From positions 11-64,010 of the forward strand of contig JAOAHX010000014.1 of NCBI GenBank assembly GCA_026415035.1: a stretch of 64,000 nt of DNA, given 5' to 3'. A program made the translations under genes and the position numbers. The DNA comes from Thermodesulfobacteriota bacterium (GTDB taxonomy: Bacteria > Desulfobacterota > BSN033 > UBA1163). Positions 18,767 through 53,048 of the stretch are shown in pieces. The notes below the pieces were generated by a model. The model did not search any database. It had not been told where the DNA came from and saw only the letters and a list, made by a program, of their open reading frames with translations. Within the stretch, counting starts at the first letter, position 1. Each line of letters opens with the position of its first letter.

Positions 18767-20212
18767 ATGAGGCAAGATCTCAAAAGGTCCCTGAAAGCGG
18801 TGGACACCACCGACTGGAAGCCCGTGGAGGTGGAATTTGGCAGGCAGACGATCGAGGTCCGCCTTCCTCCCCATAGTGCGGTTCTTTCGATGAAGGACGT
18901 CCCCGTCCTCTCCAATCCGAGGGAGGCCATCGAGGAGGCCTTCGCCCATCCCATCGGCAGTCCTCCTCTCGAGGAGATCATCCGGAAAAAGGGAAAGGCC
19001 CCGAAGGAGATGAGCGTTGCTATTGCCGTCTCCGACATCACCCGGCCGGTCCCCTACAAAGGGGATTCCGGGATTCTCGGACCCCTTTTGAAACGACTGG
19101 AGGCCTCGGGCATCCTTAAGGAGCACATCAAAATCGTCGTGGCCACGGGGATGCACCGGCCGAGCACCCATGAGGAGAAGATCGAGATGTACGGGTCCGA
19201 GGTGGTTGACCAATACAGGATCCTCGACCACGATTGTGAGAACAGGGACCTTCTCGAAAGCATCGGGACGACCCGAAGGGGAACCCATGTCTTCGTGAAT
19301 AAAGATTTCTATTTCTCCGACCTCAAGATCGTGACGGGTCTTGTGGAGAGCCACTTCTTTACTGGAATCTCTGGGGGCCGAAAATCGATCTGCCCCGGGC
19401 TGGTCGATGTGAAGACCATCCAGAAGTTTCACGGTCCCCTCTATCTGGAGGATCCCCGGACCACCAACCTCGTCCTCGAGGGGAACCCCTGTCACGAAGA
19501 GGCGCTGGAGGTGGCCCAGACCGTCGGGGTCGATTTCGCGATCAACGTCAATCTCAATAAAGAGTTGCAACTCGTGAGGGTCTTTGCAGGCGAGATGGAG
19601 GAATCAAACCTCAAGGCCTATGAGTTGATCAAGAGCTATGCCGAGATCCCGATCGAGGAGGAGTTCGATATCGTCCTCACCCATAGCGGCTATGTGGGGA
19701 GGGACCATTATCAAACGGCCAAGGCGGGCGTAGGGGCGCTGCCCGCGGTCAAGCCTGGGGGGACCATCATCATTGCGGCCAACAATAGGGATCTCATCGA
19801 GCCCATCGGCTCGCCCGAATATCGAAGCTTGATCCACCTTTTGAAATTACAGGGCCCGGAGGGCTATCTCGCCCTCCTGAGGTCTCCGACCTGGAGATTT
19901 ACGAAAGACCAGTGGGAGCCCGAGGTGTGGGGTAAGGTGTTGAGAAAGGTGGGCGAAGAGGGGTTGATCTATTGCTCCCTCGAAATCGAACGAAAGAACT
20001 ATTGCCTTCTGCCCGGGATCTGCGGCCTCGACTTCTTGGAGGATGGGGAGGTCGATCCCTCCCTCCAGAAGGCTCGCCAGATGGTTCAGAATGCGGTGAT
20101 CTATGCCGTGGGACGCTACCGGGAAAGGGGCATTGAACCGACCGTTGCCTTTATCCGGGAGGGACCCTATGCGGTTCCAATCCTCCGAAAAGGTCCTCCC
20201 CTCACGACTTGA
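18767..20212 (+). CDS. LarA-family (DUF2088) nickel-pincer-cofactor-dependent racemase/epimerase homologue
   Basis: 481 aa; layout and conserved His/Lys-containing segments ([28 protein letters not shown]) typical of lactate racemase LarA family. Confidence 0.7.
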
Positions 20213-34318: not shown

Positions 34319-34762
34319 TCAGCCCTTTCGGTCGCAGCCGAGATATTTAAAGAGGCCGGTGACGAAATTTCCCCAGGTGGGGAGGAGACGGTCGATCTCA
34401 TAGGGGATCAGTTTGACCTTTCCCTCGTGGAGGAGGCTGTGGATCTCCTCTAACTTCGTGAAGCTCAAGGGCCAGGTCTTCTTCCCGAGCTCACAGATCA
34501 TGTGGATGTTCTTGGTCTTCTCATCGAGGTCGAGGATCCGGAGTCTCTTAAACCCATCCCCGGCGAAGAACTGTATCTTCTGATCCTTCATCTCCACCAG
34601 CTTCTCCCAACCGAAGACGCATCCCTCGGAGGAGGGTGCCCCTCTGGAGGGAGCAGCCGCCTCTCGTTTGGCCGTCTTTTTTGCCGCCCCTTGCCTGGCC
34701 CTATCCCTGGGGAAAGGGTTCTTTTTAGAAAGAGACTCCTTTTCGACCTTCTCCGAGCCCAT
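34319..34762 (-). CDS. Hypothetical protein with basic disordered N-terminus and ~100-aa C-terminal domain
   Basis: 147 aa; N-terminal K/R/A-rich tract, then globular-looking domain; no family recognised. Confidence 0.4.
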   Translation of the reverse strand: MGSEKVEKESLSKKNPFPRDRARQGAAKKTAKREAAAPSRGAPSSEGCVFGWEKLVEMKDQKIQFFAGDGFKRLRILDLDEKTKNIHMICELGKKTWPLSFTKLEEIHSLLHEGKVKLIPYEIDRLLPTWGNFVTGLFKYLGCDRKG

Positions 34763-34897: not shown

Positions 34898-35470
34898 ATG
34901 AAGATCTTGGGGATTCTCGGAAGTCCAAGGCGGAAAGGGAACAGCGACCTCCTGCTCGATCAGGCCCTCGCCGGGGCGAAAGAGATGGGAGCCAAGGTGG
35001 AGAAGATCGCCCTAAGCCGCAAAAAGATTGCAGGATGTTTGGACTGCACGAAATGCAACAAGACGGGCCTCTGCGTGATCCAGGACGACATGCTCGAGAT
35101 CCATCAAAAGATCCTCAAGGCGGACGGCCTCATCCACAGCGTCCCGCTCTATTTCTGGGCCATGACCTCGCAGATGAAGGCCTATTTGGACCGGTGGTGC
35201 GCCTTCTTCGATGAAAACTGGAACTGGCACAAGGCGTATGAACCGAAGATGAAGGGGAAACGGATCGGCCTGATCACCGTCTGCGGCGACCCCGATCCCC
35301 ATACGGCCGACCCAATCGTCCACAGCTTCAGGGAGACCTGTAAATTCTCCGGCCTTCATCTCTTTCCCGTGGTCCAGGTCTCGGCCGCGGTCAAGGGAGA
35401 GGTGGCGAAGAACGAGAAGGCGAAGAGAGAGGCCTTTCTCTTGGGGCAGAAGATCGCCACCCCTTCATGA
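34898..35470 (+). CDS. Iron-sulfur flavoprotein (Isf-like, NADPH-dependent FMN reductase fold)
   Basis: Flavodoxin-like start MKILGILGSPRRKGNS and compact CxxCxxCx5C motif (CLDCTKCNKTGLC) diagnostic of the Isf family. Confidence 0.75.
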   Translation: MKILGILGSPRRKGNSDLLLDQALAGAKEMGAKVEKIALSRKKIAGCLDCTKCNKTGLCVIQDDMLEIHQKILKADGLIHSVPLYFWAMTSQMKAYLDRWCAFFDENWNWHKAYEPKMKGKRIGLITVCGDPDPHTADPIVHSFRETCKFSGLHLFPVVQVSAAVKGEVAKNEKAKREAFLLGQKIATPS

Positions 35471-35483
35471 TTTACTGGGCGGG

Positions 35484-35696
35484 TTAGACTTGCGCCAAGG
35501 CCCTCTTCAGGCTCTGGTTGCACTGTTCGAGGTCCTGGAGGGCCTTTTCAATCTCCGCCTTAACCCCGTCTAACCCCAAAGCTTCTGCCCTTTCCGCCCA
35601 CTTTCGATATTCAGCCATATGGCTTTCGTTGTGCTCGATCCAATGGTCGAGCACGACCGACAGCTTCTTCTTCTCGTCCATGATTTCCCCCTCCAT
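35484..35696 (-). CDS. Small helical hypothetical protein (70 aa), co-transcribed with GMP-synthase ATP-PPase half
   Basis: 10-nt gap downstream of 35707..36651 gene; His/Glu-rich (HWIEHNESH); no family recognised. Confidence 0.4.
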   Translation of the reverse strand: MEGEIMDEKKKLSVVLDHWIEHNESHMAEYRKWAERAEALGLDGVKAEIEKALQDLEQCNQSLKRALAQV

Positions 35697-35706
35697 TCTT
35701 CTTCCG

Positions 35707-36651
35707 TCAGACGTACTCGATGGTCGCCGGAGGTTTGGGCGTCAGATCGTAAAGGCAACGATTCACATCCGGAAGGGCGGTGATCCGCTCGCAGATCCGT
35801 TTCAGCTTCTCCCAAGGCAGTTCGACAGGGGTGGCCGTCCTCGCATCGAGGCTATGAAGGCACCGGAGGACGATGATCTGACCGAACTGCCTTTTTCCCT
35901 CCACGATCCCCGTTGCCCTGTCATTTAAAAGGACGGCCAGATACTGAAAGGCGTCCATATCTCGGAGCTCTTCTTCGACGATGGCGGTGGCGGCGCGGAC
36001 CGTTCGAAGCCTCTCCTCGGTCACTTCGCCCACGATACGGGCGGCCAGGGCAGGCCCAGGAAAGGGCATTCTTCGGGTGATTTCGGGCGGAAGACCCAGA
36101 ACCTTTGCGACCTCCCTCACACCGTCCTTTCGCAACGTTTTGAGGGGTTCGATGACTTGATAACCGAACTCCTTTTCGGGATCGATCCCGATCTGGGCCA
36201 GGATGTTGTGCTGACGCTTGAGGCCCGCCACGGTCTCTTCGATGTCGGTCAGAATGGTGCCGTGGAGGAGAAATTTTGCCCCGGTCTCGTCGATTAACCT
36301 TCGGAAGACGGTGGCATAAAAGGTCCGGGTGATGGCCTCTCTTTTCTCTTCGGGATCGGTCAGGCCCTTCAGGGCCTCGAGGAATTCCCTCTTTGCGTCG
36401 ACGAGACGAACCGGAATCCCCATGCCGGCGAAGAGGTGGACCACCTGCTCGGCCTCTCCTTCTCGCATCAGGCCGTTTTCGATGAAGACGGTGATGAGCC
36501 GATGGCCCAAGGCCCTGTGGCCCAGGAGGGTTACCACGGAGCTATCGACGCCGCCGCTCAGGGCATTGAGGGCCAGTTGATCTCCGACGGTGTTTCGGAT
36601 CGCCTCGATCTGTTCTTGTACGAAGGCCTGGTAATTCATGGTCCCATCCAC
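35707..36651 (-). CDS. guaA: GMP synthase ATP-pyrophosphatase + dimerisation domains only (archaeal subunit-B-like, no glutamine amidotransferase domain)
   Basis: PP-loop ALSGGVDSSV, EAEQV, DPEEKR, EPLKTLRKDGVRE, PFPGPALAARIVGE, C-terminal YDLTPKPPATIEYV, all collinear with the C-terminal half of E. coli GuaA. Confidence 0.85.
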   Translation of the reverse strand: MDGTMNYQAFVQEQIEAIRNTVGDQLALNALSGGVDSSVVTLLGHRALGHRLITVFIENGLMREGEAEQVVHLFAGMGIPVRLVDAKREFLEALKGLTDPEEKREAITRTFYATVFRRLIDETGAKFLLHGTILTDIEETVAGLKRQHNILAQIGIDPEKEFGYQVIEPLKTLRKDGVREVAKVLGLPPEITRRMPFPGPALAARIVGEVTEERLRTVRAATAIVEEELRDMDAFQYLAVLLNDRATGIVEGKRQFGQIIVLRCLHSLDARTATPVELPWEKLKRICERITALPDVNRCLYDLTPKPPATIEYV

Positions 36652-36680: not shown

Positions 36681-37184
36681 TCATTTTTTTAAAACTTCCA
36701 CGACCTCGGCCCGAACGAAGAGCCACCTTTTTTCGCTCTTTTTAAGAAGGCAATCGATTTCGTGTGCCTCGCTGAAGGCCTCGCCACCGGCCATCTTTCC
36801 GGTGAGGCGGGCGGTCAGGGTGACCTTGGCCTCGTTTCTTTGAGGAAAGGTCATGTGGATATCGTAAAAACTCACCTGAAGTTCGGCCACCTGAAGCCTG
36901 CTTCGGGCCACGTAGCCGAGGATCTCCTCTCGGGCCAACGTCCCTGAGATCGAATAGGCCTGGATCGAGAGCTCACAGGTCTCCTCCAGGAGGGAGCCGA
37001 TCTTTTTGAGCTTCTGATCCAGGGTGAAGAGACTCTCCCCTGTTTCTTTTGAGAGGGCCTGGGCGAGGGCGTTTAACTCCCTTTTGATCCTCTTCTCTTC
37101 GCTCGGAGGAAGGGCGAAGAAGGCGAAAAGCCCCGCGCTCGCCAGCAGAAGGGCGATCAGGAAGGTCCGGGCCTTGATTACCAT
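36681..37184 (-). CDS. Membrane-anchored hypothetical protein (NTF2/SnoaL-like domain guess)
   Basis: Start MVIKARTF (ATG overlapping lepB stop by 7 nt); N-terminal TM helix; longer 209-aa reading would overlap lepB by 130 nt. Confidence 0.45.
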   Translation of the reverse strand: MVIKARTFLIALLLASAGLFAFFALPPSEEKRIKRELNALAQALSKETGESLFTLDQKLKKIGSLLEETCELSIQAYSISGTLAREEILGYVARSRLQVAELQVSFYDIHMTFPQRNEAKVTLTARLTGKMAGGEAFSEAHEIDCLLKKSEKRWLFVRAEVVEVLKK

Positions 37185-37669
37185 AAGGGACTGCCCAAGA
37201 TTCGCGAAAGGCTCACCTGTCCGAAGAGGTGGTCTCTCATCGGGCCGCCTCGATTGTCTCCCACCACATAGACGGAACCAGGTTCGACCCGACGGGGGGG
37301 GAGGGTCCATCGGGAAGGGATCCGAAGATAGGGCTCCTCGATCTCTATCCCGTCCACCAGGAGTTTCCCATTTTTGAACTCCACCACTTCTCCCTCCAAG
37401 CCCACCACCCGCTTAAGAAGCGTGACCCTCTGTCCGGCCAAGCGGATCACGACCACATCGCCCCTTTTCGGTTTCGAAAAGAGATAACGTCCTCTCCAGC
37501 AGAAATTGATGGCGCCGTTTCGGTAGGTCGGCTCCATGCTGTAACCCTCGATCCGAAATGGGATCAGCAGATATCCAAAGATCAGGTAGGTGAAGAGGGC
37601 GATCAGGCCCGCCCGGATCATGAAGGTCCGGGTCAGGGCAGGGAAGAGGAAGCGCCGGAGGCGGTTCAT
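37178..37669 (-). CDS. lepB: Signal peptidase I
   Basis: GYSMEPT catalytic Ser motif, VVGLEGE, VVGDNRGGPMRD (box E-like) motifs; N-terminal TM. Confidence 0.9.
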   Translation of the reverse strand: MNRLRRFLFPALTRTFMIRAGLIALFTYLIFGYLLIPFRIEGYSMEPTYRNGAINFCWRGRYLFSKPKRGDVVVIRLAGQRVTLLKRVVGLEGEVVEFKNGKLLVDGIEIEEPYLRIPSRWTLPPRRVEPGSVYVVGDNRGGPMRDHLFGQVSLSRILGSPLW

Positions 37670-46831: not shown

Positions 46832-46892
46832 AGGGTGTTTGAAAAGGGATCCCCCAGAGACCGTCCATCGGCAGGGGATTCGGAAAGGAGGG

Positions 46893-47381
46893 ATGGGAAT
46901 GATCAAGAAGATCTCGGTCTATCCGGAGAAGTGCACGGCCTGTCGTCTGTGCGAGTTGGGGTGTTCGTTCAAGAAGACCGGTGAGTTCAATCCGGTGGCC
47001 TCGAGGGTGAGGGTCTCCATCTTTGGGGAGGACGCCTTCTATACGCCGATCCTCTGCACCCAGTGCGATGAGGCCTGGTGCCTCAAGGCCTGTCCGAGCG
47101 GGGCCATCTCAAGGGATCTCGGGCAGAGGGTGGTGAAGGTGGATCCCCAGCGGTGTGTGGGATGCCGGATGTGCACGATGGCCTGCCCGTTCGGAACGAT
47201 CACCTACGACCCGCAACAGGGAAAGGCGATCAAATGTGACGAGTGCGATGGCCAGCCCGAATGTGTCCTGTTCTGCCCGACGGGTGCCTTGAAGTATGAG
47301 GAAGAATCCATGCCCACCCGGCTCAAACGGGCGATGACCGCTCGGAAGCTCGAGTCTTCCTCGAAGGAGGTGCAGCCATGA
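46893..47381 (+). CDS. 4Fe-4S ferredoxin-type electron-transfer subunit of aldehyde oxidoreductase (AorA-like)
   Basis: Four CxxCxxCxxxCP-type cluster motifs; RBS AAGGAGGG; start ATG 46893 or 46899; stop overlaps AOR start (ATGA). Confidence 0.8.
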
Positions 47382-49180
47382 AGGGATGGGTTGGAAAGAT
47401 GTTGAGGGTGAACCTCACCCAAGGAGATTGGAGGGTGGAGGAGCTGGATAGGCAACTCGCCCTGAAGTTCATCGGTGGAAGGGGCCTCGGTTCGAAGATC
47501 CTCTATGACGAGATCGATCCGAGGATCGATCCCCTCAGCCCTCAAAACAAGCTGATCCTCGCCACCGGCCCCCTGACCGGGACGAGCGCCTCGGCAGCCG
47601 GCCGCTATATGGCCATCACGAAATCGCCTCTGACCGGGGCGATCGCCTGTTCCAATTCCGGGGGGCACTTCGGCGCCGAGCTCAAATTCGCCGGATTCGA
47701 TCTGATCATCGTCGAAGGAAAGGCGAAAGAACCGGTCTATCTCTTCGTCGAGGACGGAAAGGTGGAGATCCGCGAGGCGAAACACCTCTGGGGGAAGACG
47801 ACGCATGAGACGACCGACCAGATCCGGGCCGAGACCGATATGGATGCGAAGGTCGCCTGCATCGGCCCTGCCGGAGAGAAACTCGTCCGCTTCGCCTGCA
47901 TCATCAACGATAAACATCGGGCCGCAGGCCGCTCGGGCGTCGGGGCGGTGATGGGTTCGAAAAACCTGAAGGCGATCGCCGTCAAGGGAAGCGGAAGCGT
48001 CTGCATCGCCGACAAGGAGGGTTTCAGGAGGGCAACGCTCGACGGATTCCAGAAGGTGAAGGCCAATCCCGTCACCTCGACGGGTTTGCCCGCCTATGGG
48101 ACCGCGGTCCTGGTCAACGTGATCAACCAGCACGGCCTCTTTCCCACGAGGAACTTCCAGGAGGGGGTCTTCGAAGGCGCCGAGAAGATCAGCGGAGAGA
48201 CCCTTGCCGAACAGATGCTTATCCGGAATCAGGCCTGCTTCGCCTGCCCCATCGCCTGCGGCAGGGTGACGAGATCGAACCACCCCAAATTTGCCTATTC
48301 CGGCGAGGGCCCGGAGTATGAGTCGGACTGGGCCTTGGGGGCCTGTTGTGGCGTGGATAACCTCGATGCGATCGGAAAGGCCAACTACTATTGCGACATC
48401 CTGGGACTCGACCCGATCTCCGCGGGGGTGACGATCGCCTGTGCGATGGAGCTGTTCGAGAGAGGAATTTTGACCTCCAAGGAGGTTGGCCGCTCCCTCT
48501 ATTTCGGAGACGCGGAGGCCATGGTCGAGATGGTGAGGCAGACCGGTTACCGGGAGGGATTCGGCGATGCCTTGGCCGAGGGCTCCTATCGCCTGGCCGA
48601 GAGGTTCGGCCACCCCGAATTTTCGATGAGCGTGAAGAAACAGGAGTTTCCTGCCTATGATGGCCGGGGCGCCCAGGGCATGGGGCTCCAGTACGCCACC
48701 TCCAACCGGGGCGCCTGTCACGTGAGAGGCTACATGATCTCTCCTGAGATTTTAGGGGCTCCCCAGAAACTGGATCCCTTCGAGACGGAGGAGAAGGCGG
48801 GCTGGACCAAGGCCTTTCAGGATACGACTGCCGTGGTCGACTCCTCCGGGATCTGCCTCTTCAACACCTTTGCGATCGGCATCCCGGAGATCGCCGCCTA
48901 TCTGAAGGCGGCCACCGGGGTCGAGATGACCCAGGAGGAGCTGATGAAGGCCGGAGAGAGGGTCTGGAATCTGGAGCGGCTCTTCAATCTGAAGGCGGGG
49001 ATGACGGGGAGAGAGGATCGCCTGCCGGAGAGGATCGTCAAAGAACCCCTGCCCTCGGGCCCTGCCAAGGGTCAGGTGGTCCGGCTCGAAAAGATGTTGC
49101 CAGAATATTACGAGATCCGGGGATGGGACAAGGACGGGGTTCCCACTCCGGAGAAGCTGAAGGAACTCGGGCTGGAATGA
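47378..49180 (+). CDS. Tungsten-containing aldehyde:ferredoxin oxidoreductase family catalytic subunit (AorB-like)
   Basis: 600 aa, AOR N-terminal domain (MLRVNLTQG...FIGGRGLG) and tungstopterin domains ([11 protein letters not shown], GxGxCHVRG-like segments). Confidence 0.92.
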
Positions 49181-49189
49181 GGTGAGCTT

Positions 49190-49229
49190 CCCCCGGCCTC
49201 CGTTTGAAAGGGGGTCGGGGGATTTTTTT
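49190..49229 (+). terminator. Intrinsic terminator/attenuator between aorB-like and aorC-like genes
   Basis: CCCCCGGCC-13 nt loop-GGTCGGGGG stem followed by ATTTTTTTG. Confidence 0.6.
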
Positions 49230-49240
49230 GCGAGGAGGCG

Positions 49241-50512
49241 ATGGCGAGAAAGCGGAGACGAAGGATCGTCATCATCGGTAACAGCGCGGCGGGCCTTTCG
49301 GGCCTCGAGGCCCTGAGGAAGAGGGATCCCGATTGCAGGGTCGTCCTGATCGACGAAGAGCCCTATCCTGCCTATTCCAGGGTGATCACCCCCTACTTCG
49401 TCCTCGGCAGTCTGAAGGAGGAAAGTGGTCTCTTTCTGAGAGACAGGGCCTATTACCGGAGGCTCGGGGTGAAGACCCTTTTCGGCAGGAGGGTGGTCGG
49501 CCTGGATGTTCGAAACCGGGATGTCCTTCTCGACAACGGGAAGAAGGAGCCTTTCGACCTACTATTGATCGCCACCGGGAGCTCCCCGATCCGACCGAAG
49601 ATCCGGGGTGCCAAACCCGACGAGATCCACGTCTTGAGGAGCCTGGAGGATGCCAGGCGTTTGAAAGCCCTTAAGCCGACCATCCGACAGGGGCTCTTCT
49701 TGGGAGGAGGGCTCGTCTCGCTCCAATCCCTTCAGGCCCTCTTTCGAAGGGAGGGCCGCTACACGGTTGTCGTCAAGTCCGACCATCTCCTCTCCCAACA
49801 GCTCGATCCCGAAGGGGCCGAGATGATCGAGAAGCGGCTGAGGGGGATGGGAGTTCAGGTCTTGAAAGGAAGGGATGTGATTCAATTAAAACGGAGGAAA
49901 GGGTCTCTTCGTGCCGTCCTCGATACCGGCGAGGAGCTGGAGACCGACTTTCTCTTCGCAGGTAAGGGGGTCCGTCCCAATATCGACTTCCTCAGGGGGA
50001 CGGGCATCGAGACCAAAGGCGGGATCCTGGTGAACCGGCAGATGGAGACGAACATCGAGGGCATCTATGCCGCGGGGGATGTGGCGGTGGCCCCGGACTT
50101 CTTCTCTGGCGAAGAGGTCCTTTATGGGTTATGGTCTTCTGCGGTGGAGCAGGGAGCGGTGGCGGGAACGAATATGGCCGGCCAGGGGGTCGATTACGAA
50201 GGCAACCTGAAGATGAACGTGACGCGGATCTTCGCCGTACCCGTGGCTTCGATCGGCGAGGTCCGCTCCACCCGGGTGGCCGAGAGCCTGGTCCGAAAAG
50301 ACGAGAGGAGGGGGATCTACCGGAAGTTCTGTTTCGATGGGCAAGGGAGGCTTATCGGAGCGATCCTGATCGAGGAGGTGGAAGACTTAGGAGTGATCCA
50401 AGGCCTCATCAGGAAGAGAAAGGACGGGGCGATCCTCAAAACCCGCTCCCTCTGGAGATCGCCGGTCAACTACGGATTGGTCTTTAAAGGCCTTTTGCAG
50501 GGCAGGCCCTGA
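49241..50512 (+). CDS. FAD-dependent pyridine nucleotide-disulfide oxidoreductase (AorC-like NAD(P)-linked subunit)
   Basis: RIVIIGNSAAGLSGLEAL FAD Rossmann, second GxGxxG-like NAD fold (LFLGGGLVSL), AAGDVA motif. Confidence 0.8.
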   Translation: MARKRRRRIVIIGNSAAGLSGLEALRKRDPDCRVVLIDEEPYPAYSRVITPYFVLGSLKEESGLFLRDRAYYRRLGVKTLFGRRVVGLDVRNRDVLLDNGKKEPFDLLLIATGSSPIRPKIRGAKPDEIHVLRSLEDARRLKALKPTIRQGLFLGGGLVSLQSLQALFRREGRYTVVVKSDHLLSQQLDPEGAEMIEKRLRGMGVQVLKGRDVIQLKRRKGSLRAVLDTGEELETDFLFAGKGVRPNIDFLRGTGIETKGGILVNRQMETNIEGIYAAGDVAVAPDFFSGEEVLYGLWSSAVEQGAVAGTNMAGQGVDYEGNLKMNVTRIFAVPVASIGEVRSTRVAESLVRKDERRGIYRKFCFDGQGRLIGAILIEEVEDLGVIQGLIRKRKDGAILKTRSLWRSPVNYGLVFKGLLQGRP

Positions 50513-51842: not shown

Positions 51843-53048
51843 ATGATCCCTGAGGAGATGCTTCGTTCGCTCGTCGTGAGGAATGGATCGAAGTTGGTGA
51901 TGCTCGTCCTCGACGGGCTCGGTGGGTTGCCCGTCCGGGGCAGGACCGAACTGGAGGCGGCAAAGACCCCGAATCTCGACCGGCTCGCCTCGAAATCGGC
52001 CTGCGGGCTGATCGATCCCCTTTCTTACGGGATCACGCCGGGCAGCGGCCCTTCGCACCTCGCCCTGTTCGGTTACGATCCCTTCCGGTACGAGATCGGC
52101 CGGGGGGTGATGGAGGCCCTTGGCATCGGATTGGATTTGACCGAGGAGGATTTAACGGCCAGGGGAAATTTCGCCACCCTCGACGAGGCCGGCCTGATCG
52201 TGGATCGCCGCGCGGGAAGGATCTCGACCGAGACGAACCAGAGGCTCTGTGAATTTCTCCAGAGGGAGATCCGGGAGGTCAACGGGGTGAGGGTCTCGAT
52301 CCACCCGGGCAAAGAACACCGGTTCGTGATCGTCTTTAGAGGGGAAGGGTTGCGGGACGACCTCTCCGATGCCGATCCTCAGAAGGAAGGGGAGAAGGCC
52401 AAGGGCACCGAACCTCTCACGGCCGAGGCTCAGAGGACCGCCCAGATCGTCAATGCTTACCTTCAGAAGGCGACCGAAGTGTTAAAGGGTTCGCATCCGG
52501 CGAATACGATCCTCCTGAGAGGGTTTTCCAAGATTCCAAAAATTCCTTCGATGTTCGAGCGGTTTGGCCTAAAATCGGCGGCCATCGCCACCTATCCGAT
52601 GTATCGAGGGTTGGCCAGGTTGGTGGGGATGGAGGTCCTTCCCACCGGGGAGACCTTTAAAGAGGAGATAGAGACCCTCAGAACCCATTACGAGGAATAC
52701 GACTTCTTTTACCTCCACTTCAAAAAGACCGATTCGGCAGGCGAGGATGGGGATTTCAAAAGGAAGGTGAAGGCGATCGAGGAGGTCGACCGGCTCCTTC
52801 CCTCGCTGCTCCGATTGAAACCGGATGTCTTGGTCATCACCGGAGATCACTCTACCCCCGCCCTTCTCAAATCTCACAGCTGGCATCCCAACCCGATCCT
52901 CCTCCATTCGGGATACGAACGGCCCGACGGGATCCGCAGGTTCACCGAACGCCAATGTCAGAGAGGACAGCTGGGCAGGCTCCCGGCCGTGGCGATCCTG
53001 CCCCTCATGCTGGCCAACGGGTTGAGGCTGAAGAAGTTCGGGGCCTGA
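51843..53048 (+). CDS. apgM: 2,3-bisphosphoglycerate-independent phosphoglycerate mutase, archaeal type
   Basis: LVLDGLGG...TPNLD...PGSGPSHLALFGYDP, metal-binding ITGDHSTP; ApgM-like layout. Confidence 0.8.
   Translation: MIPEEMLRSLVVRNGSKLVMLVLDGLGGLPVRGRTELEAAKTPNLDRLASKSACGLIDPLSYGITPGSGPSHLALFGYDPFRYEIGRGVMEALGIGLDLTEEDLTARGNFATLDEAGLIVDRRAGRISTETNQRLCEFLQREIREVNGVRVSIHPGKEHRFVIVFRGEGLRDDLSDADPQKEGEKAKGTEPLTAEAQRTAQIVNAYLQKATEVLKGSHPANTILLRGFSKIPKIPSMFERFGLKSAAIATYPMYRGLARLVGMEVLPTGETFKEEIETLRTHYEEYDFFYLHFKKTDSAGEDGDFKRKVKAIEEVDRLLPSLLRLKPDVLVITGDHSTPALLKSHSWHPNPILLHSGYERPDGIRRFTERQCQRGQLGRLPAVAILPLMLANGLRLKKFGA

Follow-up and report, generated by a model that had tools for sequence, protein, structure and literature searches.

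GMP synthetases (GMPS) make guanosine monophosphate (GMP) from xanthosine monophosphate (XMP) with an ATP pyrophosphatase (ATPPase), and reviews describe the enzyme of bacteria and eukaryotes as a fused two-domain protein, the split form being found only in archaea (PMC10526850; another review). The closest described relatives of the protein reported here are the archaeal ATPPase subunits PH1347 (2dpl/3a4i) and MJ1131 (6jp9), stand-alone proteins of about 310 amino acids (aa) with a PP-loop and a dimerisation/XMP domain. In vitro, ATPPase subunits on their own form GMP with NH4Cl as the nitrogen donor, and that of M. jannaschii (MjATPPase) has an unusually high affinity for ammonia (PMC10526850; 10.1101/2022.02.27.481963). 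We analysed 64,000 nucleotides (nt) of contig JAOAHX010000014.1 (hereafter the window), from a metagenome-assembled genome (MAG) of a sediment-type bacterium of the Desulfobacterota, in which a guaA-like gene encoding such a stand-alone ATPPase (the large protein) is followed on the minus strand by a small gene encoding a DUF8180 protein (the small protein). With moderate confidence we read the large protein as a catalytically competent stand-alone ATPPase that would convert XMP to GMP with free or trans-delivered ammonia, and the small protein as separate from it. In literature usage, guaAB denotes the guaA-guaB operon and not subunit B.

The domain architecture of the large protein is that of the ATPPase half of GMPS. 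It contains the Pfam domain GMP_synt_C (82 bits against a cutoff of 27, covering profile positions 9-92 of 92) and matches the NCBIfam model TIGR00884 (guaA_Cterm) almost from end to end (320.6 bits, E 1e-95, positions 2-309 of 310). An in-frame stop precedes the open reading frame (ORF) and the PP-loop begins at residue 32, making the ATPPase a separate polypeptide. A search of the PDB ranked the archaeal subunits of P. horikoshii (275 bits; 2dpl, E 6e-81, residues 1-307) and M. jannaschii (271 bits) above the ATPPase halves of fused bacterial GuaA, which scored approximately 188-211 bits. The sequence-only reading had proposed an archaeal-style stand-alone half, collinear with the C-terminal half of GuaA and devoid of a glutamine amidotransferase (GATase) domain, and the profile coverage, the absence of that domain and the closeness to the archaeal B subunits bear this out. 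An AlphaFold2 model (pLDDT 77.8) agrees, with Foldseek matches to 2dpl/6jp9 at E values of about 1e-28 and LarE far behind at 1e-10. Model confidence is low in three places, the lid (133-149), a loop at 243-247 and the C-terminus (307-314), and these are the segments described as disordered in crystals without substrates (PMC10526850).

The large protein shares its catalytic residues and 43-45% identity with PH1347 and MJ1131. It differs from the archaeal subunits in being bacterial, in belonging to a separate short clade and in carrying a clade-specific triad of cysteines, and these three features are what is unusual about it. With fused GuaA (E. coli 1gpm, T. thermophilus 2ywb, A. baumannii 7sbc) it has the ATPPase chemistry and motifs in common, but it lacks the N-terminal glutaminase domain, has a shorter lid loop with QHN instead of HHN, and reads PFPGPAL for PFPGPGL and, in the Arg loop, EGKR for GDxR. 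The 120 best matches in the database are 76-86% identical to the large protein, which appears to be under strong purifying selection; the NCBI names of homologues vary between 'ExsB family' and 'ATP-binding protein'.

The TIGR00884 score of 320.6 bits does not reach the equivalog cutoff of 338.75. We considered this shortfall as a sign of a paralogue with a function other than GMPS and rejected it, as an archaeal ATPPase whose gene adjoins a GATase gene (P0410) scores lower still, at 274.9 bits, and the score of the large protein is thus no evidence against GMPS function. A second archaeal ATPPase, with the same QHN lid as the large protein (P0258), scores 300.8 bits, and the cutoff excludes probable true members of the QHN type.

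Residues that matter in GMPS include the PP-loop, D371, E374, K386, H388, H389, N390, K411 and K415 of the P. falciparum enzyme (PfGMPS), R249 and R294 of the M. jannaschii ATPPase, and the C-terminal loop, which closes on XMP; these have catalytic or binding roles (PMC10526850; 10.1101/2022.02.27.481963). In the lid, adenyl-XMP cannot form without K386 and H389, whereas N390 has its role after the adenylation step (PMC10526850). The equivalents in the large protein are D136, E139, K145, Q147, H148, N149, K171 and K175 (the Lys pair of the EPLxxLxK helix), R254, R298 and KPPATIE. We aligned the large protein with its 120 closest homologues and found D136, E139, K145, Q147, H148, N149, K175, R254 and R298 invariant in all 121 members. 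D36 of the PP-loop is kept in 120 members, KPPATIE in at least 120 and K171 in 112. The PP-loop SGGVDSS and the C-terminal KPPATIEY that had been noticed from the sequence are both present in the translation, and a check for lost catalytic residues returned none: all are retained, and invariant or nearly so. The sole departure from the known GMPS residues is Gln147 in place of the first lid His (H388), the Lys, second His and Asn being kept.

Three further residues, C264, C287 and C299 (35755-35862), are specific to the clade, Ala, Ser and Val standing at these positions in other GMPS. In the model all three belong to the C-terminal domain, the first and last lying in strands and the middle one in a helix. 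C299 is invariant, C264 is replaced by Ser in 3 of the 121 members and C287 in 9. An Fe-S site like that of [4Fe-4S] LarE or TtuA was considered for this triad and disfavoured, because two of the cysteines are Ser in some members.

The lid motif IK(T/S)HHN of GMPS has been described as invariant (PMC10526850). To place the QHN variant, we searched 1.84 billion cluster representatives and sorted 128 near-full-length matches by lid motif. Every QHN-lid protein (33 of 33) was stand-alone, and 72 of the 87 HHN-lid proteins carried an N-terminal extension of at least 80 residues, corresponding to a fused glutaminase domain. Ten full-length representatives checked by name belong to taxa unrelated to the window lineage, such as Actinobacteria, Firmicutes, Streptococcus and Bathyarchaeota. 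QHN proteins came in a short form of 305-330 aa, from bacterial MAGs where named (Deltaproteobacteria, Patescibacteria), and a long form (366-405 aa) whose named members are archaea (Ca. Methanodesulfokora of the Korarchaeia, Micrarchaeota). The archaeal proteins owe their length to an insertion that the window protein lacks. The lid signature K-x-QHN-[IV]-L-x-Q-[IL]-G-I is common to the window protein and these korarchaeal-type stand-alone subunits, in keeping with the archaeal likeness first suggested.

In two archaeal genomes a GATase gene accompanies that of the QHN protein. In Ca. Methanodesulfokora a gene for a 177-aa GuaA-type class I GATase starts 6 nt after the QHN ATPPase gene, its product being 44% identical to the M. 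jannaschii GMPS glutaminase (as judged against an approximate reference sequence), and in another archaeal genome a GATase gene lies 5 kb from the QHN ATPPase gene. Because all 33 QHN proteins are stand-alone and include archaeal subunits, one of them encoded beside a GATase gene, the QHN lid marks a recognisable two-subunit type of GMPS and not a set of dead enzymes. On these same archaeal subunits we rejected the idea that Gln in place of the lid His signals inactivity, and the published lid motif is too narrow.

Based on these residues, we propose that a homodimer of the ATPPase would bind ATP-Mg and XMP, that the PP-loop and the lid loop (K145, H148 and N149, with D136/E139) would form the adenyl-XMP intermediate, and that ammonia would displace AMP from it to give GMP. 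The surrounding anaerobic milieu, rich in ammonium, could supply the ammonia directly, or a small class I GATase subunit could do so from a gene at another place in the genome, as in many archaea. In view of the in vitro use of NH4Cl by such subunits and the ammonia affinity of MjATPPase, direct use of ammonia and supply by an unlinked GATase are both plausible. NH3-dependent NadE without a glutaminase domain, a M. jannaschii case of which is discussed in a preprint (10.1101/2022.02.27.481963), is likewise a PP-loop adenylating amidotransferase that uses free ammonia. It serves as an analogy only, having another substrate and belonging to another family, and the NadE models score 31-36 bits on the large protein.

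As the sequence-only reading had stated, no GATase gene adjoins the large gene, and tblastn with two archaeal GuaA GATase subunits and approximate E. coli and M. jannaschii sequences as queries found no GuaA-type GATase anywhere in the 64-kb window, nor was there one in the flanks of related bacterial loci. Genes of distant stand-alone ATPPase clades lie between those for an IclR regulator and a HisF-like protein, near AIRS-domain genes, or on a Patescibacteria contig, and none of these contexts has a GATase gene next to the ATPPase gene. In the clade at 58% identity (L084:8001-9889; also L085-L087) a lone HisF-like gene (TIGR00735, 288 bits; cutoff 294.55) comes after the ATPPase gene. Neither hisH nor any other GATase gene is nearby in these loci, where the synthase halves of two amidotransferases adjoin without a glutaminase.

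Several observations weigh against a GMPS function of the large protein in this organism. Neither the window nor the approximately 20 bacterial contexts examined contain a GATase gene or any other purine gene, and a glutamine-dependent holoenzyme is therefore putative. The reviews cited above assign the fused enzyme to bacteria, and a fused guaA may well be present elsewhere in the genome, in which case GMP synthesis would not depend on the window copy. All that is left of the guaA-like gene on a long-read MAG contig of 1.17 Mb is a stretch encoding the N-terminal 45 aa (L030:216-353), which looks like gene loss, and the gene is thus dispensable in at least one lineage. The fused-form rule and this remnant both point towards redundancy of the window copy. 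As for the lid, the H388A substitution in PfGMPS slows adenyl-XMP formation (PMC10526850). In a neighbour-joining tree, moreover, the short QHN proteins form a single clade of 17-20 representatives that is split from all other GMPS at the midpoint root, and some of its distant members (P0243, P0248, P0250, P0261 and P0332), each a single metagenomic sequence of unknown quality, are without the lid Lys or the 249-loop Arg. Parts of the short QHN clade may no longer be GMP synthetases; the window protein's own sub-clade keeps both residues.

In L030 the remnant continues without a break into an ORF of 395 aa whose several hydrophobic stretches look, by eye, like those of an MFS transporter. In another locus (L024), what seemed to be a deletion within the guaA-like gene is a scaffold gap of N and not a pseudogene.

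Most of these observations would also suit a diverged paralogue, the main rival explanation, which we consider unlikely while taking it seriously. Under it, a normal fused guaA would be present and the stand-alone copy would have another role or serve, under particular conditions only, as a back-up ammonia-dependent isozyme; in one variant its substrate for adenylation may be XMP or a similar nucleotide, to which it would add a nucleophile other than ammonia. The separate short clade, its distant members without equivalents of K145 or R254, the lack of purine or GATase context in any bacterial locus examined, the truncated remnant and the reviews' assignment all fit such a history, as do the TIGR00884 score below the equivalog cutoff, the varied database names and the replacement of the usual Ala, Ser or Val of GMPS by clade-specific cysteines. 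However, the known catalytic and XMP-binding residues persist throughout the window protein's clade, the TIGR00884 score of the archaeal ATPPase encoded beside a GATase gene is lower still, the cysteines are not strict ligands given their replacement by Ser, and no alternative partner enzyme is conserved next to the gene. A different possibility, doubtful in our estimation, is that the Desulfobacterota clade has no fused guaA and makes GMP through the archaeal-style stand-alone ATPPase, with ammonia taken up directly or from a shared or unlinked GATase and with the CooJ-like DUF8180 protein as a lineage-specific accessory tuning the metal requirement of the enzyme.

The two ORFs lie on the minus strand as first described, at 35707-36651 (314 aa) and 35484-35696 (70 aa). 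Since the 120 proteins closest to the large protein are, with few exceptions, 310 aa long with an MNYQAF/MDYRAF N-terminus, ATG 36639 is the likelier start of the large ORF than GTG 36651. Most homologues of the small protein are 65 aa long with an MD(E/Q)KKK N-terminus, and a GGAGGGGG Shine-Dalgarno sequence lies 7 nt upstream of the second ATG of the small gene, at 35681, which is its likelier start. The spacer is therefore about 25 nt once the homologue-supported starts are used, in place of the 10-nt gap originally given. The large protein has more than 8000 homologues and the small one 196, down to E 2e-34 and with 21 invariant columns, and both ORFs are therefore genuine genes. A promoter/terminator scan, which performed no better than on shuffled sequence, placed no terminator-like site between them, and an Rfam scan around the pair returned neither a riboswitch nor another RNA. 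Co-transcription of the pair is probable in this lineage.

We then scanned for DUF8180 genes in one genome per species, keeping 80 loci. Desulfobacterota MAGs carry the family, as do Methanosarcinales (Methanosarcina, Methanolobus, Methanococcoides, Methanomethylovorans). In 11 loci DUF8180 comes right after a guaA-like gene (gaps of 13-83 nt); such a gene lies some 700 nt upstream in L012 and L033 and 4.4 kb upstream in one further locus, so that approximately 14 of the 80 species-level loci are guaA-linked. In a tree of the small protein all adjacent cases fall into one clade. In its sister clade the guaA-like gene and DUF8180 are 2-6 kb apart or the guaA-like gene is a remnant; the upstream neighbour of DUF8180 there is a class I methyltransferase gene in 12 loci, with rubrerythrin-like, alpha/beta hydrolase and CsoR-family repressor genes nearby. 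DUF8180 follows a same-strand aconitase-family gene in the Methanosarcinales (34 loci), none of which has guaAB within 6 kb. No DUF8180 gene adjoins the ATPPase gene in the stand-alone clades at 58% and 55% identity or in the Patescibacteria locus. Because the adjacent cases form a single clade and the arrangement is not kept elsewhere, the adjacency arose once, in one Desulfobacterota clade, and appears to reflect inherited synteny and not functional pairing.

This distribution bears directly on the suggestion, made in the sequence-only reading, that the small protein is an ammonia-channelling or regulatory subunit. A dedicated accessory subunit of the ATPPase, serving ammonia delivery, regulation or metal supply in place of a GATase, is in our judgement quite improbable. 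Its case draws on the shared strand, the short spacer without a terminator and the retention of the pair in at least 11 species-level loci; the korarchaeal operon, with its GATase gene directly after the ATPPase gene, makes the position suggestive, and an extra Mg2+ site has been described in the GMPS ATPPase (10.1101/2022.02.27.481963). The single origin of the adjacency speaks against it, as do the loosened or broken linkage in L012, L033 and the sister clade, the other stand-alone QHN clades without a DUF8180 neighbour and the Methanosarcinales, which carry DUF8180 with no guaAB within 6 kb. In addition, the modelled 65-aa hairpin shows no glutaminase triad or channel-like features. The subunit proposal was thus not borne out, and the only relative that we could identify for the small protein is the nickel-binding N-terminal domain of CooJ.

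Among the methanogen loci (L044-L083; e.g. L076:4561-6204) the aconitase-family gene upstream of DUF8180 is in several cases itself preceded by CCG-domain (HdrB-like) and ferredoxin-like genes. The sharing of DUF8180 between syntrophic Desulfobacterota and methanogens suggests gene transfer between partners.

A precomputed match to PF26551 (DUF8180) is recorded for P0121, a 65-aa protein identical to the small one, and for every homologue listed; the Pfam copy scanned here is without that model, hence the lack of a direct match. A literature search found no mention of DUF8180. The core K-L-S-V-V-x2-H-W-x-E-H-N-E-S-H-x3-Y-x2-W-A is invariant in 43 aligned homologues. AlphaFold2 predicts a two-helix hairpin (mean pLDDT 97.2; helices 2-39 and 43-69), for which Foldseek returned only generic helical hairpins and half ferritin-like bundles, all at E values above 0.5. 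The only PDB sequence match is CooJ of R. rubrum (6hk5; phmmer, marginal E value of 0.007), a nickel chaperone of CO dehydrogenase (CODH) maturation, the aligned stretches being KKKLSVVLDHWIEHNESHMAE in the window protein and RKRLGIYLAHFLDHVEGHMGE in CooJ. A profile-profile comparison of DUF8180 with CooJ by hhalign gave a probability of 80.6% and an E value of 1e-5. Telling against the relationship, the family profile searched against the PDB retains the CooJ match over 23 residues only, at a marginal E value of 0.06, and a word-based protein search with the CooJ fragment found no match.

Homology of the small protein to CooJ is likely, though the similarity is statistically marginal. The two share the stretch K-x-L-x-[VI]-x-L-x-H-[WF]-x-[ED]-H-x-E-x-H-M-x-E and the two-helix hairpin architecture of the CooJ N-terminal domain. 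Two of the four features compared set them apart: the His-rich C-terminal tail of CooJ is absent from the small protein, which ends in KRALAQV and has three His in total, and from its homologues, and CooJ is encoded with cooS/cooC/cooT, whereas the small gene is not in a coo operon. No CODH, cooS, cooC or cooT gene was found among the annotated window genes or the conserved neighbours in the 80 loci. Alfano et al. in 2019 reportedly described H(W/F)x2Hx3H as a strictly conserved motif that makes up the high-affinity Ni(II) site of CooJ at its dimer interface, and we take HWIEHNESH of the small protein to be its equivalent. The small protein is probably CooJ-N-terminal-like and probably binds Ni or a similar metal, the three His forming a candidate site. 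In the mechanism that we envisage, the 65-aa hairpin would dimerise, probably into a four-helix bundle, and would hold a Ni-like ion through three His on one helix face.

In sister-clade loci (L011-L031; e.g. L021:5370-5645) a CsoR/RcnR-family repressor gene lies at most four genes downstream of DUF8180 in 10 loci, and a rubrerythrin-like gene is its immediate convergent neighbour in 7. These neighbours are loosely consistent with a metal-related role of DUF8180.

A LarE-like role, in which the PP-loop enzyme and the CooJ-like protein would act in nickel-pincer cofactor synthesis for a LarA-family enzyme encoded 15 kb away, is extremely improbable and was rejected on the TIGR00268 and Foldseek scores: although the LarA-family gene itself, the place of LarE (an ATP-dependent sulfur transferase with the same PP-loop fold) as the next-best structural relative after GMPS and the CooJ-type nickel motif of the small protein would suit it, the large protein scores 50.6 bits on TIGR00268 (cutoff 150), LarE has neither its GMP_synt_C domain nor its invariant XMP-binding KPPATIE tail, no larB or larC was seen among the annotated window genes, and related loci show no linkage between the pair and the LarA gene.

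The large gene, the small gene and their motifs are listed with other genes of the window in Table 1. A database protein 100% identical to the window protein is named N3G78_09395 (Desulfobacterota bacterium), and the nearest species-level relatives are labelled Syntrophorhabdus sp. or Deltaproteobacteria. The neighbours of the pair are housekeeping genes, in the conserved order Mla system, PilZ protein, signal peptidase, 209-aa membrane-anchored hypothetical protein, guaA-like gene, DUF8180 and convergent flavoprotein.

Table 1. Coordinates of the gene pair, its motifs and other genes of the window (window positions)
Feature	Position	Strand	Remarks
Stand-alone GMP-synthetase ATP-pyrophosphatase ORF	35707..36651	-	314 aa from GTG 36651; 310 aa from ATG 36639
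PP-loop SGGVDSS, residues 32-38, ATP pyrophosphatase signature	36538..36558	-	translation
D136-I-E-E139, equivalent to Asp371/Glu374 of P. falciparum GMPS, helix before lid	36235..36246	-	
Lid-loop motif LKRQHN, residues 144-149, variant of IK(T/S)HHN	36205..36222	-	
KPPATIE, residues 306-312, XMP-binding C-terminal loop	35716..35736	-	
25-nt intergenic spacer with GGAGGGGG ribosome-binding site of the small gene	35682..35706	-	
DUF8180 (PF26551) protein, predicted two-helix hairpin	35484..35681	-	65 aa; 70 aa if ATG 35696 is used
HWIEHNESH, fits H(W/F)x2Hx3H	35619..35645	-	invariant across 43 aligned homologues
LarA-family homologue	18767-20212	+	
147-aa conserved hypothetical protein	34319-34762	-	
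Flavodoxin-fold FMN reductase-like protein	34898-35470	+	
209-aa conserved hypothetical protein	36681-37310	-	
Ferredoxin-like and oxidoreductase gene cluster	46839-50512	+	
Archaeal-type ApgM	51843-53048	+	

The flavodoxin-fold gene converges on the small gene, 13 nt separating the two stop codons, and is a conserved neighbour in 10 related loci. Its product is FMN reductase-like and contains C47-x2-C50-x2-C53-x5-C59, a pattern that we take to resemble the motif of the iron-sulfur flavoprotein Isf. Directly upstream of the guaA-like gene lies the gene for the 209-aa protein, which has an N-terminal hydrophobic segment and keeps this position in 10 loci. The 147-aa protein is encoded two or three genes downstream of DUF8180 and was found in 11 loci. 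Neither of these two conserved hypothetical proteins has a match in Pfam or NCBIfam.

Farther away, the LarA-family gene encodes a homologue of nickel-pincer-dependent 2-hydroxyacid racemases whose score of 280 bits reaches none of the subfamily cutoffs; the distance to the CooJ-like gene is 15 kb, and larE, like larB and larC, was not seen among the annotated window genes. The oxidoreductase cluster comprises ferredoxin-like, aldehyde:ferredoxin oxidoreductase-like and FAD/NAD oxidoreductase genes, with partial matches to PadI and PadH of phenylglyoxylate dehydrogenase that are all below cutoff. The cofactor-independent phosphoglycerate mutase ApgM, which the earlier reading had called archaeal-type, was confirmed by the NCBIfam model NF003160 (620 bits against a cutoff of 468).

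Together our results describe a well-conserved bacterial clade of stand-alone ATPPases with a QHN lid, as in archaeal subunits, and the generalisations that bacteria have the fused and archaea the split enzyme and that the lid is invariant are therefore too narrow. For annotation, the TIGR00884 cutoff misses proteins of the window type, and the small gene is better labelled DUF8180/CooJ-N-like than as a GMPS subunit. As it stands, the locus holds a modest variant of a known enzyme arrangement, and it would become more interesting only if the genomes prove to be without a fused guaA. In that case the clade would be a bacterial exception to the textbook rule of fused bacterial and split archaeal enzymes. 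If this clade is the only GMP synthase of these anaerobes, it would represent a natural ammonia-dependent or trans-complemented bacterial GMPS, useful for studying the evolution of amidotransferase coupling.

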